A stretch of DNA of 64,000 bases from a virus (lineage: Duplodnaviria > Heunggongvirae > Uroviricota > Caudoviricetes): the IMG/VR virus record IMGVR_UViG_3300006143_000275; one strand, 5' to 3'. Positions 9,781-31,434 of the stretch are shown here, in pieces. Under the pieces are notes generated by a model. That model was not told the origin of the DNA. It ran no database searches and worked only from the letters and a program-made list of their open reading frames with translations. The position numbers and the translations under genes were made by a program. The first letter of the stretch is position 1, and each line of letters starts with the position of its first letter.

Positions 9781-10701
9781 TCACCCTTGTTTCTTCAGAT
9801 ATTGGAACATTTCTGTAATATCGTTTGTAATATCGTGCCGGATGGAGCAACAGGAATTCTTTGCGAATTTCCCCTCGACAGCGTCGATATACATGGAGGC
9901 GGACGTGAACTCTCCATCCATACCGTCGTCCCCCATGTAGAATTCCTTCCACTGATCCTCCGACATCAGCCGCCTTACATCGAGCTGGCGAATAGCAAGA
10001 TTGTCAAAGCTGACTGCTTTGAAGAAGCCATGTTTCACAGCGTCACCCAATGCGTTATAGAGTGCAACCTTTTTAGCCGCGATGTCTTCGCCGTGCCGCT
10101 CCAAGTTGTCCTCGCCGCGCCGGAAATCTTTATACCCGAGAATCAGAATCTTCAGGTTGTGACCAGCCAGCGACCTGAACCCCTTCATCGAAATCATACC
10201 GTTGATGATGTGAATGACAGCATTGGGGTAATACTTAACCATCTCAATAAAGCTGTCTGTGTCTTCCGTCCAGTCCAGATAGGAGATACCAAGCCCATAA
10301 ATTAACCCATGCTCCGTCAGGTATCGGAGCATGGGAAGATTTTTCATGAAATGCGTTTTGTTAACCGTGATATTGGGAATCAGCTTCCGCTCTTTGAGTT
10401 GCTGTAGAAATGGAATCAAATCTGGATGGGCGAGCGGATTGCCGCCGCCAATAGCAAGCTCAGTATAGGGGCGGATAGAATCCAAGAATGGCAGATGCAG
10501 GATGTCTCCATGTCTGCCATCCGGTCTTGAGTCCTCGTGACACATAGCGCATCCCATATCACACTGGTTTGTGATCTTGATGTCAAACGACTCTGGGAAC
10601 TCAGGCTCAAAGAAATCCAGGTCGTTTTCACGAACCTTCGTTCCGTCGCTATAGATTCTCACACGGTAATTCCCGTTGGTGTACTCGCCTAAAATACTCA
10701 C
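9781..10701 (-). CDS. radical SAM protein, function unknown
   Basis: CxxxCxxC cluster (ITNQCDMGCAMC) followed by a Gly-rich SAM-binding segment (LAIGGGNPL); about 300 aa. Confidence 0.6.
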   Translation of the reverse strand: MSILGEYTNGNYRVRIYSDGTKVRENDLDFFEPEFPESFDIKITNQCDMGCAMCHEDSRPDGRHGDILHLPFLDSIRPYTELAIGGGNPLAHPDLIPFLQQLKERKLIPNITVNKTHFMKNLPMLRYLTEHGLIYGLGISYLDWTEDTDSFIEMVKYYPNAVIHIINGMISMKGFRSLAGHNLKILILGYKDFRRGEDNLERHGEDIAAKKVALYNALGDAVKHGFFKAVSFDNLAIRQLDVRRLMSEDQWKEFYMGDDGMDGEFTSASMYIDAVEGKFAKNSCCSIRHDITNDITEMFQYLKKQG

Positions 10702-10719: not shown

Positions 10720-11049
10720 TTATCCGTCTCTCCCGTACTCACCAAACGCGACCATCTTGTCTCCACTCGGCGTAGTGAAGTAGTGGGAGTATGATTCCAT
10801 AGAACCCCAGTCACTGTAACCCAAGTGTCGATGATCCTGATATCGGTATTCCTCAGATTCGAGGAGCAGCTTTGAATACGGAACGAGTTTGCCATCGAAG
10901 CAGTCATACATCAGTTCATCCTGCTTGAATTTCTCGTATTCTTCCTGCGTGCAGATAACGATGCTATGCGTGGAGCTGCTGTTTGTTTCAAACACTCCAC
11001 ATCTTACTTGTCTCATACGCTCTCCTTTTTGATTGCGATTAAAACTCAC
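10720..11049 (-). CDS. FETNSSSTH-motif protein (paralog of 15550-16068)
   Basis: N-terminus MRQVRCGVFETNSSSTHS is nearly identical to the N-terminus of the ORF at 15550-16068. Confidence 0.4.
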   Translation of the reverse strand: MSFNRNQKGERMRQVRCGVFETNSSSTHSIVICTQEEYEKFKQDELMYDCFDGKLVPYSKLLLESEEYRYQDHRHLGYSDWGSMESYSHYFTTPSGDKMVAFGEYGRDG

Positions 11050-11803
11050 ATTTTATAGGCCGCGATGTCACATTCTGAAAGAATGGCATCGGCAGGAGCT
11101 TGTGCAGGTTACGCTCGTTCATGGTCTTGATTTTACTGTCAAGCGAAGGATCTCCTGTTGTACCGACCATGATGTACTTGTCGAGCTGCGCATAGGTAAA
11201 ACCGAGATTGTCCTCGTCACTTTTGCCACACAGGCCGTCAGACGGCGTTTTGTCCACCAGTTCACGCGGAATGGGCAATTCGTACCCGATTTGCAGGACT
11301 TCACTCACCAGGAGACTGGCAAGAGGACTGAAATCTCCCGCACTGTCCCCAAACTTTGTGGAATATCCCACATAATCCTCTGAGCCATTACATGTGTTGG
11401 CTACCCGTCCGCCGTTCGGAAGCGACTGCGCAACCGCATACAGTGTTGCCATGCGGATGCGAGCTGGCAGATTTACCTTCGACTGCTCCGTTACAGGCAT
11501 ATAACCGCGAATTTCCAAAGTCAGACGCTCAATCGCTCCTCCGATATTGATAGTGCAGTGCTCAATGCCAAGCGTCTCCACTACCTTTCGGCTGTCCTTG
11601 ATGTCGTGCTGGACACCATTTGGCATCAAAACACCAAATACGCGGTCTTTGCCGAGCGCCTCAACGCACAGGGCGGCGACAATCGAGCTGTCTTTCCCGC
11701 CAGAAATTCCGACAACCGCACTGCACTCCGGGCCGTTTTCCTGAAAATAATCACGAATCCACTGAACGATTGCGTCTTTTGTGTGTTTTGGGTTTGGAAG
11801 CAT
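11039..11803 (-). CDS. nadE: NH3-dependent NAD+ synthetase
   Basis: PP-loop SGGKDSS; C-terminal PSDGL...DE..LG..Y..LD.Y pattern typical of NadE. Confidence 0.75.
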   Translation of the reverse strand: MLPNPKHTKDAIVQWIRDYFQENGPECSAVVGISGGKDSSIVAALCVEALGKDRVFGVLMPNGVQHDIKDSRKVVETLGIEHCTINIGGAIERLTLEIRGYMPVTEQSKVNLPARIRMATLYAVAQSLPNGGRVANTCNGSEDYVGYSTKFGDSAGDFSPLASLLVSEVLQIGYELPIPRELVDKTPSDGLCGKSDEDNLGFTYAQLDKYIMVGTTGDPSLDSKIKTMNERNLHKLLPMPFFQNVTSRPIKCEF

Positions 11804-11806
11804 AAA

Positions 11807-12249
11807 TTACCCCTCTTTTCTCCATAGTTCTACCGTGTATTGCTGGCCAAGAATCTTCTCAATGATTCCGAACACAACACCCCAGTTGCCTCCACCAAGA
11901 CCACATCCAATCTTGTATGGCATTGCAATCGTCTCGCCAGCAGGAACGATCTGTTTTAATTGGAGTAGACACTTTTCAAAAGCTGCATAGTCTGTGTACT
12001 GCCTTCCGTTATAACCGTACTGGTCTTGAGAAAACAGATTGCAAACAACCTGGGGATCAATATTCTTGCCATCAACAGGTGTGCGCCCTCATCGCACCTG
12101 ACCTTATACCATTTGTAAACTGTGGGGAATTTTGTCCTTATCTGCTTTGCGACGCCGCTTCCCATTTTCCCTTGGCAGTTCACTTGGTGGCAAATATAAT
12201 TTGATTTTGTAGAGAACAGGTCTCCATCAATTATTTTGATAGACATCAA
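11807..12249 (-). pseudogene. macro-domain (ADP-ribose binding/processing) gene split by a frameshift
   Basis: Frame A (11956-12249) gives the macro N-terminus IIDGDLFSTKSNYICHQVNCQGKMGSGVAKQI; frame +2 (11807-12088) gives NIDPQVVCNLF...IAMPYKIGCGLGGGNWGVVFGIIEKIL and ends 4 nt before the nadE start. Confidence 0.5.
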
Positions 12250-14186: not shown

Positions 14187-14987
14187 CTACTCTAATACAG
14201 CCACTTTCTCATGTTCACCACGATAGATGCTGTTTGTTGTAAATACTCGTGAAATCTGGCCATCTGTCAACACGGAGCCCTTGAAGATGGTGCTCTCACA
14301 ATGGGACACATACAGAAAAATTTCCTTTGCACCAGCTTCTTTCAGGGCAGCAGCAGTATGGGTAAACGTACCGCCACGGGAGCAAATGTCGTCCACAATA
14401 AGAACATTTCGACCGGCGACCTTCTCACTGTTGGCGAGTTCAAGCCCTTCAATTTTGCCAGTGCGCCAGTCACGGTGCTTGATACCGAACACATACTCCC
14501 GGCCCATCAGGTCGGAGTACCGCTTGGCAGCGCCCTCGTCCGGGTAGCACATCAGAACATCAGTATCGCCTGTATCAGCCATGACACGCTCAATAGCCAG
14601 ACGGATATTGTCCGCAGGCTCCTTCACGCAGATGCGGTCGATAAGCGCTGCCGCCACATTGGAATGTGGATCAAGCACTTCAACCTTACGAAAGTTGAGA
14701 GTGTTAATGAACTCGGCGAACCATTTCAGGGTGAACACCTCGTCGCCGCTCTTGACCCTGTCCATACGAGCATTGGGAATGTACGGCAAAACGAGCTCAA
14801 TATCCACACCCATCCGATTGTTCGCCCGAATGTGATGCACCAAATGCCACAGGAGCATACACTCGTGGTCGCCATCATACCGCCACTCAATACGGAACCA
14901 GACAGCGTCTTTGGTATCAAGGCGGAAGGATGTGGTCCCGTCTGGGAACTGCGTAAAGTTAACAGGGGTTCTGTTCACCAGAATCAT
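14187..14987 (-). CDS. prs: ribose-phosphate pyrophosphokinase (PRPP synthetase)
   Basis: PRPP-binding loop VLIVDDICSRGGTFTHTAAALKEAGA; about 266 aa. Confidence 0.75.
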   Translation of the reverse strand: MILVNRTPVNFTQFPDGTTSFRLDTKDAVWFRIEWRYDGDHECMLLWHLVHHIRANNRMGVDIELVLPYIPNARMDRVKSGDEVFTLKWFAEFINTLNFRKVEVLDPHSNVAAALIDRICVKEPADNIRLAIERVMADTGDTDVLMCYPDEGAAKRYSDLMGREYVFGIKHRDWRTGKIEGLELANSEKVAGRNVLIVDDICSRGGTFTHTAAALKEAGAKEIFLYVSHCESTIFKGSVLTDGQISRVFTTNSIYRGEHEKVAVLE

Positions 14988-14990
14988 GTC

Positions 14991-15539
14991 TTACTCCTCC
15001 CAGTTCTCAATGTTGATTTGACACATCTTCATGGCCTTGAGGGCATTTTCGTGGCTCTCTGGTGTCACGCCAGCGCAGCAAGCGGCATCCACCGTAATTT
15101 TGACTTCCGGCAAAAACGCTTTAAGCAGCAGCGCGTTGGAAATGACACAGATATCGGTGCAGAGGCCGACCAGGACAATCTCGTCAATATGGCTCGACAC
15201 GCTGTTTTTAATGCGCAGGTACTCGCCAAGTTCAATAGAGCCAAACGTTTTCTTTCTGAAAGTAGAAGTCCACTCCTCCTTGTCTACGATTGCATTGAAA
15301 AGCACATCAGGGGCGCACCAGCCCTCGGTCTTATCAATGCAGTGCTCAACGGGGAGCATCTTCCCTTCCTGCGTCTCCAGATAGTCCTTATCGTGGGTAT
15401 CAAAGGTTGCAAGGATCTCGCCGTCAAACTCTTCGGCTTTCGCAACAACCTTCGGCAGAATCGCCTGCGCCTCTTTGGTGCCAAGAGACCCATCAATGAA
15501 ATCGTTTTGCATATCAACAATGACCAATACCTTACTCAT
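14991..15539 (-). CDS. pncA: nicotinamidase / isochorismatase-family hydrolase
   Basis: VLVIVDMQNDF signature; start taken at the internal MSKVLVIV. Confidence 0.7.
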   Translation of the reverse strand: MSKVLVIVDMQNDFIDGSLGTKEAQAILPKVVAKAEEFDGEILATFDTHDKDYLETQEGKMLPVEHCIDKTEGWCAPDVLFNAIVDKEEWTSTFRKKTFGSIELGEYLRIKNSVSSHIDEIVLVGLCTDICVISNALLLKAFLPEVKITVDAACCAGVTPESHENALKAMKMCQINIENWEE

Positions 15540-15549
15540 ATGTACCTCC

Positions 15550-16068
15550 TTAGTTCCCCTTGTAGTAAAATTCGTGCCGGTAATCGACATGGAAATTTTC
15601 CACGCGATCATCGTCAATTTCATCACTTGTTGTTAAAACAACGCTTTTATCGGAGAATAAATAACGGAGCAGCCGCCCGCTGCTCCGAAGTATTCCGTCC
15701 ACGAACCTCAGATGATCGTCCTCACCAGCATGATCGACAAAAGCATTAACGCAATAAACGCCGCTTCCATATCTGTGATAGGTGGCCTTTTCAAACTCAC
15801 ATTGAACACCAACTTTCATCAGTTCTTCCATAATCCATGTCTTTGCGTTCTCTGCCTTTTTCATTTCATAAAGCGACAGGATACTGGAGTATAAATACGC
15901 AGCCTTATCCTCGACTGACCGCAGTTCAGCAGGCTCTCGGCCAAAATCGTCACATCGAAAATACACCTTTTCTGGATATTCTAGTTCAGCCTTCCTGTCC
16001 GTCACAATACAAATACAGTGGGTGCTGCTGGAATTGGTCTCAAACACCGAATTTCGTACTTGCCGCAT
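15550..16068 (-). CDS. FETNSSSTH-motif protein (paralog of 10720-11049)
   Basis: MRQVRNSVFETNSSSTH N-terminus; the listed ORF is over-extended upstream, start taken at M63. Confidence 0.4.
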   Translation of the reverse strand: MRQVRNSVFETNSSSTHCICIVTDRKAELEYPEKVYFRCDDFGREPAELRSVEDKAAYLYSSILSLYEMKKAENAKTWIMEELMKVGVQCEFEKATYHRYGSGVYCVNAFVDHAGEDDHLRFVDGILRSSGRLLRYLFSDKSVVLTTSDEIDDDRVENFHVDYRHEFYYKGN

Positions 16069-18154: not shown

Positions 18155-18574
18155 TGGTGGAGCCGGCGGGAATCGAACCCGCGTCCGAAATTCCTACATG
18201 AGCAAGACCTTTTTACGCAATAGGTTTCCTTTTAGGTGGATGCCTTATGGCGGGGCACCAAGATGGAATCCAAATCTACCCCAGGGCGTACCAGTTAAGT
18301 ACACCTCCACCACCTTGTCTTTTTGAACAGATTACAAGGAAAACTGTTTTTCTGGCGTATCCTCGACCGCAGGTACTTACCCAGCCAGAGGTGTACCGTT
18401 TTGGAATCCTGCCGACAGTTAAGCGGCGACCCTCTCTGCCATGAAGGCGGCGAAAGCGGGATGGATCATAACAACACTCATATCATTGTCATTTCATTTT
18501 TTGTTTAGCCTTAAGGCGGTCTCTACCTGCGAATCTTACTCTCTCAGAACCCCGTCGAAACCTTTACGGCCCCG
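18155..18574 (-). ncRNA. ssrA: tmRNA (ssrA)
   Basis: 5' end GGGGCCGTAAAGGTTTCGACGGGG matches the tmRNA 5' consensus GGGGCUGAUUCUGGAUUCGACGGG; 3' end GGACGCGGGTTCGATTCCCGCCGGCTCCACCA matches the tmRNA tRNA-like 3' end; the termini pair as an acceptor stem; about 420 nt; internal short ORF ending VAA-TAA. Confidence 0.6.
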
Positions 18575-31348: not shown

Positions 31349-31434
31349 AGAGAGTGGTGGGAATCGAACCCACGCAGCGCATATCCGGTTGACAGGCATG
31401 TATCTGCCCCGCTCTGCCACTGAGCTACACTCTC
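31349..31434 (-). tRNA. tRNA of uncertain identity (about 86 nt) with an apparently 8-nt anticodon loop and a long variable region
   Basis: Canonical acceptor, D-arm (GCTCAGTGGCAGAGC) and T-arm (GTGGGTTCGATTCCCAC); best anticodon stem GGCAG/CTGTC encloses ATACATGC; no encoded CCA. Confidence 0.35.

Follow-up and report, generated by a model that had tools for sequence, protein, structure and literature searches.

The adpp macro-domain gene of a NARP1-type NAD+ cassette has lost 73 bp in the 64,000-nt stretch of caudoviral DNA analysed here (hereafter the window), and it cannot encode a complete macro domain. We consider it very likely (probability of about 0.88) that this gene is a dead copy of adpp, inactivated by a single deletion that is both fixed and young, and that with it the phage lineage lost the component that turns NARP1 into NARP1-AP.

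Structure of the split macro-domain gene

All genes in the region of the macro-domain gene are encoded on the minus strand (Table 1), and the gene itself is divided between two reading frames. Frame A corresponds to an ORF at positions 11956-12249 with its ATG at 12246, which reads MSIKIIDGDLFSTKSNYICHQVNCQGKMGSGVAKQIRTKFPTVYKWYKVRCDEGAH, continues with 40 unrelated codons and ends at a TAA (11958-11956). Frame B is the -1 frame, open from 12088 to 11810 and terminated by a TAA at 11809-11807; its sequence reads ..PVDGKNIDPQVVCNLF / ..PVDGKNIDPQVVCNLFSQDQYGYNGRQYTDY ... IAMPYKIGCGLGGGNWGVVFGIIEKILGQQYTVELWRKEG, and its C-terminal end is ELWRKEG. The earliest start codon in frame B is an ATG at 11923, which would give a product of only 38 aa, and stops abound in the third frame. 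At the upstream border, the stop codon of the Namat-like gene overlaps the frame A ATG (TGATG), and at the downstream border 3 nt separate the frame B stop from the nadE ATG at 11803.

Table 1. Coordinates of the adpp remnants and of the surrounding NAD+ cassette in the window
Feature	Position	Strand	Remarks
Adpp remnant, N-terminal codons 1-56 (macro domain residues 1-56), frame A	12080..12246	-	profile positions 1-56 (E 3.6e-30); H20/N23 kept
73-nt deletion junction	12079..12080	.	GGCGCACA joined to CCTGTTGAT on the minus strand
Adpp remnant, C-terminal 90 codons (last 90 residues) and TAA, -1 frame	11807..12079	-	profile positions 72-153 (E 6.5e-44)
Out-of-frame tail of the frame A ORF, 40 codons (LLMARILIPRLF...SVYSN) and TAA	11956..12078	-	no family homology
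Namat-like gene (earlier 'nadV'), 508 aa	12246..13772	-	405 bits to SpbetaL1 Namat 9W5X/9W5W
Adps-like gene (profiles: prs)	14187..14987	-	37% identity to SpbetaL1 Adps
NadE, NAD synthetase, NH3-type	11039..11803	-	GAGGGG Shine-Dalgarno 6 nt ahead of ATG
Isochorismatase-family (PncA-like nicotinamidase) gene, head of cassette	14991..15626	-	family match

The two frames match complementary parts of a macro profile of 50 homologues, which found no further match elsewhere in the 64-kb window. When joined, the remnants (147 aa) exceed the gathering score of the Pfam Macro family (26.5 vs 22 bits). These results bear out the initial annotation, which had described a macro-domain gene interrupted between 'nadV' and nadE, with a macro N-terminus running into unrelated codons in one frame and the remainder of the domain in another. 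Translation gave no single uninterrupted frame, and the similarity to macro domains was confirmed by the profile. An overlap of about 130 nt between the frames had also been reported; both frames are indeed open there, but the overlap is incidental, as the homologous parts abut at 12080 and 12079. The residues H20 and N23, invariant across the 50 homologues, are retained in frame A. The sole window-specific change at an invariant column is A15S (codon 15, 12202-12204, minus strand), where a Ser stands instead of the Ala found in all 50 homologues; it is possibly the first sign of relaxed constraint.

The 73-nt deletion

Homologues closest to the repaired protein measure 163-170 aa, compared to the 147 aa of the joined remnants. 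Its best relative is a protein of 170 aa (P0001, 81% identity) encoded on a 46-kb contig (L004), where the gene order is NAMPT-like / macro / NadE, as in the window. The DNA alignment of the window with L004 (89% identical) contained one gap of 73 columns. This missing block amounts to 24 codons + 1 nt, so the downstream part of the gene falls in the -1 frame, and it is carried by all close homologues (163-170 aa). A shared C leaves the placement of the junction ambiguous by 1 nt, and no microhomology beyond this nucleotide was found at the deletion ends when L004 was used as reference. Comparison with orthologous loci, which the initial annotation had proposed, thus revealed a 73-nt deletion in a gene that relatives encode in a single frame, instead of the frameshift in an otherwise complete gene that had first been described.

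Among the deleted codons 57-80, which read EKDRLGLSRSPLLGQVQVVYKEDY, are those for G70 and Q73, both conserved in at least 90% of the 50 homologues. In the AlphaFold model of P0001 (pLDDT 92.9), residues 57-80 comprise the last part of helix 41-61 together with a loop and the complete strand 71-76. This core strand (LLGQVQVV) aligns with KLGSVSLS of the Adpp of Vibrio phage Gary. Since strand 71-76 and the conserved G70 and Q73 were deleted, the model predicts that restoration of the reading frame alone would leave the fold unrestored. A functional member of this family would be expected to have a complete single-frame coding sequence with a full macro core. The window gene has lost codons 57-80 and is shifted in frame, and it is therefore a pseudogene of the family rather than a functional member.

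Identity of the macro-domain gene

A Foldseek search with the P0001 model placed Poa1p of S. cerevisiae (PDB 6LFQ/6LFR) at the top (E 5e-11, TM 0.77), followed by DarG and TARG1. At the sequence level, the family profile aligned with the Adpp of Vibrio phage Gary with 98.7% probability (hhalign, E 1.8e-16, 134 columns). P0001 was 33% identical (BLASTP, E 2e-19) to the Adpp of JG004, a NARP1-associated macro protein listed in Table S1 of bioRxiv 10.64898/2026.01.28.702374. In that study, Osterman et al. characterised the Adpp of Gary (KNV71_gp137) and described Adpp as a Poa1p-like macro protein which is present in the operon of 15% of NARP1 phages and converts ADPR-1''-phosphate into ADPR (bioRxiv 10.64898/2026.01.28.702374). 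The RES-domain defence aRES generates ADPR-1''-phosphate, which Adps cannot use, and the system named NARP1-AP, which consists of NARP1 (Adps and Namat) together with Adpp, overcomes aRES (bioRxiv 10.64898/2026.01.28.702374). Mutation of H24 and N27 of Gary Adpp led to loss of activity (bioRxiv 10.64898/2026.01.28.702374), and these residues are equivalent to H20 and N23 of the window gene.

We assign the macro gene to NARP1-AP because its neighbours are Namat- and Adps-like. The hydrolysis of ADPR-1''-phosphate that had been guessed from the sequence agrees with the activity of the characterised relatives (bioRxiv 10.64898/2026.01.28.702374). The accompanying proposal that the gene neutralises ADP-ribose-derived signals or ADP-ribosylation is not supported, as this macro family is known for supplying NARP1 with ADPR, not for signal destruction or reversal of ADP-ribosylation, and the gene is dead here.

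The window gene and Gary Adpp share a Poa1p-like macro fold, detectable homology and the catalytic HQxNC motif, and both adjoin Namat in a cassette that also contains Adps. They differ in gene order, which is Adps-x-x-Namat-Adpp-NadE in the window and Adps-Adpp-Namat in Gary, and in the additional presence of NadE and a PncA-like gene in the window cassette. Moreover, the intact relatives of the window gene form a subclade of 163-170 aa with an extra helix/loop segment, and the window gene itself is inactivated by the 73-nt deletion. Poa1p, to which the intact relative is structurally closest, shares its reaction chemistry with Adpp, whereas sequence identity is only ~20%. Poa1p is a cellular enzyme for a tRNA-splicing by-product and not a phage counter-defence protein.

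Both sequence and fold place DarG and TARG1 (PDB 5M31, 5M3E, 5M3I, 7OMU, 4J5R) in the same macro subclade, and phage DarG-like counter-defence proteins are known (PMC13309987). An anti-DarT role as in DarG was considered and rejected. The NCBIfam DarG model yielded 58.5 bits against a cut-off of 250 bits and matched residues 3-55 only, the protein is a 170-aa single domain without a DarT-binding domain, and the genomic context is that of NAD+ reconstitution rather than DNA de-ADP-ribosylation.

P0001 also matched phrog_335 (E 8.7e-41), a large macro-domain family of phages labelled as 'phosphatase', relatives of which occur in 855 GenBank phage records. Since many members of phrog_335 do not lie beside NARP1, membership alone does not imply a role in NARP1-AP. 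Examples occur in Bacillus phages FADO and Thrax5, whose macro genes were discarded as cases of NARP1-AP because they are not adjacent to NARP1.

The NAD+ cassette and its variable adpp slot

The neighbour that had been called nadV, and that profile libraries label nicotinamide/nicotinate phosphoribosyltransferase, proved to be a Namat homologue. Its protein scored 405 bits against 9W5X/9W5W, the crystal structures of SpbetaL1 Namat (PMC12774641), versus 145-182 bits against true Nampt structures. The equivalents of the clamp residues R40 and F392 are conserved, and the protein displays an insertion of 21 aa (residues 387-407) at the selectivity-clamp helix, where the equivalent of Y396 is ambiguous. 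Meanwhile, the gene that profiles assign to prs, for ribose-phosphate pyrophosphokinase, lies three genes upstream of the adpp remnant, an order also found in L004, L022 and L024. Its product is 37% identical over the full length to the biochemically characterised Adps of SpbetaL1 (154 bits, E 2e-50) and scored 114 bits against Gary Adps, versus 50 bits against the best true Prs, and it falls below the TIGR01251 cut-off. With 'nadV' nearest to Namat and 'prs' nearest to Adps, homology identifies the cassette as NARP1 (Adps and Namat), and this corrects its annotation from nadV/prs to Namat/Adps.

The content of the slot between Namat and NadE varies among relatives. L004, L022 and L024 encode a 170-aa Adpp there. 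L001 and L002 carry an allele of ~150 aa with a protein identity of only 54-55% to that of the window, beside a Namat gene with ~82% DNA identity, suggesting that recombination replaced the adpp allele in a cassette-like manner. In L025 the slot is empty and the stop of the Namat-like gene overlaps the NadE start, and in L026 and L027 the macro gene lies downstream of NadE. Adpp is fused in-frame to NadE in L047 (3521-4741) and in five protein clusters (P0127-P0131). These fusions, 406-427 aa long, represent at least six lineages with a mutual identity of only 48-50%; their N-terminal ~150 residues scored 155-172 bits against the family profile, and the remainder corresponds to Pfam NAD_synthase. 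No mention of a link between Adpp and NadE was found in the NARP papers searched. As both the content and the position of the slot vary among relatives, Adpp appears to be an accessory and often exchanged part of the cassette, which would fit a tolerated loss in the window lineage.

By NadE, L025 (794-3426) is the nearest IMG/VR relative of the window (76% identity), and its NadE ORF of 375 aa has a C-terminus ~120 aa longer than usual. A NadE-like protein of 291 aa (P0152), encoded on a 3.7-kb ENA contig, matches with its first 67 residues only positions 1-71 of the macro profile. Here adpp may have been truncated a second time, independently, beside NadE.

NadE and PncA-like genes flank the NARP1 genes in the window and in relatives (L005, L022). 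No mention of NadE was found in the NARP papers searched, and no NaMN adenylyltransferase was seen near the NARP1/NadE/PncA-like cassette. The fusions of Adpp to NadE hint at a branch of NAD+ reconstitution that proceeds through deamidated intermediates. Conceivably, nicotinamide would be converted into nicotinate, which would be combined with ADPR-PP to yield deamido-NAD, to be amidated by NadE. That the macro gene belongs to such a larger, undescribed module (PncA-like - Adps - Namat - Adpp - NadE) is a speculative and rather unlikely proposal at this stage. If this route were true, Adpp would be an optional feeder, the loss of which could be tolerated or even selected.

Consequences of the deletion and alternative interpretations

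In the scenario that we favour, the decay of adpp, a single 73-bp deletion took out codons 57-80, and with them a helix end, a loop and a whole core strand, and the same event moved the 90 codons that follow into the -1 frame. Translation coupled to Namat would now yield a 96-aa product composed of 56 native and 40 junk residues, and the C-terminal remnant would be left without a usable start codon. The gene downstream is probably still expressed, since NadE has its own GAGGGG ribosome-binding site. The phage would still rebuild NAD+ from ADPR and nicotinamide, and ADPR-1''-phosphate would presumably no longer be usable. The loss of this recycling step would mean that the lineage reverted from NARP1-AP to NARP1, and a renewed vulnerability to RES-type (aRES) NAD+ cleavage is predicted. 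A profile of the aRES inhibitor aRad1 had no match in the six-frame translation of the 64-kb window, in a genome of at least 141 kb.

The gene that decayed is of a known kind of counter-defence, from a family described in 2026, and no new mechanism is involved. It would be relevant as a knock-out that arose naturally and extends across the population, in a counter-defence gene described only that year, and as a putative case of reversion of NARP1-AP to NARP1 in the wild. The reversion predicts that the host population exerts little aRES-type pressure. The pseudogene alone changes little; the attachment of NadE and PncA-like genes to NARP1 and the recurrent Adpp-NadE fusions are more promising.

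We regard as improbable the alternative that the truncated 96-aa product gained a new role, for example as a ligand-binding or decoy peptide, and that the loss was selected. Such a product would combine the 56 native residues, including the catalytic His and Asn, with a new hydrophobic tail. Its translational coupling to Namat persists through the TGATG, it is identical in all contigs, and the lineage is widespread despite the loss. However, with 99.9% identity over the whole region, the agreement between contigs carries no information, the 56 residues represent about one third of the macro fold with most of the binding pocket missing, and the 40-residue tail has no homologues.

Still less credible is a programmed -1 frameshift, or another form of recoding, that joins the two frames into a functional macro protein of 146-147 aa, an option that the initial annotation had listed. 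Both halves are stop-free and display a low dN/dS, frame B is the -1 frame, and re-pairing of a single tRNA would be possible at four positions within the permissive zone of 130 nt. Against this, no canonical slippery heptamer (X XXY YYZ) occurs in the stretch open in both frames (12088-11958), and a TGA in frame B three codons ahead of the first homologous residue leaves almost no room for a shift. Relatives are single-frame: among 24 viral loci related via NadE, 17 have an intact macro gene within 4 kb, the gene is split only in the window lineage, and no use of frameshifting was seen among 886 homologues and these 17 intact loci. Even a perfectly joined product would be devoid of the core beta-strand and of G70 and Q73.

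Occurrence of the deletion in independent assemblies

Independent confirmation of the junction came from exact-protein look-ups. The exact 96-aa product of frame A was found in 95 index blocks and 41 contigs from NCBI, JGI, ENA and Logan, the longest of which measures 204 kb. All 11 contigs examined, from 11 different samples, contained the junction; from Namat to NadE they are 99.85-100% identical to the window, and one 141.5-kb JGI contig is identical to it over this region. All contigs that a look-up of the identical NadE retrieved encode the truncated ORF as well. The protein cluster of this ORF consists of a single sequence without related clusters. No intact sibling allele more than 81% identical to the repaired protein was found among 5.8 billion protein clusters, and the 2.8-kb region had no match among 50,697 GenBank phages (megablast). 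The deletion is real, and it is fixed in a phage lineage that is nearly clonal and has been sampled widely.

A sequencing or assembly artefact that conceals an intact gene, corresponding to the 'sequencing indel' suggested at first, is effectively refuted: indels are possible in metagenomic assemblies, and exact-pattern scans did not find again the junction in viral contigs or the left flank in metagenome and genome contigs, but the same junction and 96-aa ORF in 11 independent assemblies from different pipelines (JGI, ENA SPAdes with coverage of up to 55x, and Logan) and the absence of an intact allele from the protein collection rule out such an error, for which a clean loss of 73 nt would also be atypical at the level of base calling.

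Age of the deletion and selection on the remnants

The remnants differ from L004 by 33 synonymous and 9 non-synonymous changes, giving a dN/dS of 0.053, which is indistinguishable from the 0.045-0.13 of the flanking intact genes. Under a constraint like that of the flanks, ~8.6 non-synonymous changes would be expected in the remnants, so that the 9 observed represent no visible excess. No additional stop or indel was found in either remnant. At a dS of 0.49 to the intact relative, a rough estimate would confine the neutral phase to less than ~5% of the divergence from that relative. The deletion is evolutionarily young, as the dN/dS of the remnants matches that of the flanking genes; taken alone, a low ratio would fit either a very recent loss or ongoing selection. 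Variation within the lineage amounts to 7 SNPs in 2.7 kb, with 0 in the remnant where ~1 was expected, numbers too small for a test of constraint. Out of the three origins that had been put forward for the interruption, the analysis favours the recent pseudogene.

Other features of the window

The window encodes 12 tRNA genes, a number in keeping with a large phage genome (contigs of 141-204 kb). Inside a cluster of tRNA genes lies a full-length tmRNA gene (18155-18573, minus strand; Rfam, 96 bits) with the tag peptide AVEDTPEKQFSL. A tRNA-like gene at 31349-31434 (minus strand; Rfam tRNA, 46 bits) displays an anticodon loop of 8 nt (AUACAUGC) and a long extra arm or insert, and ARAGORN reports its anticodon as 'acat'; it may be a quadruplet-decoding or an intron-containing tRNA. 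This tRNA was considered as a suppressor of the adpp frameshift and rejected, since quadruplet decoding yields a +1 shift and a shift of -1/+2 is needed. Downstream of NadE, the minus strand encodes a YunG-like phage protein (8965-9294) and a protein of 306 aa (9781-10701) whose match to radical-SAM is weak and falls under the cut-off (22 bits). The order of these two genes is conserved in relatives.
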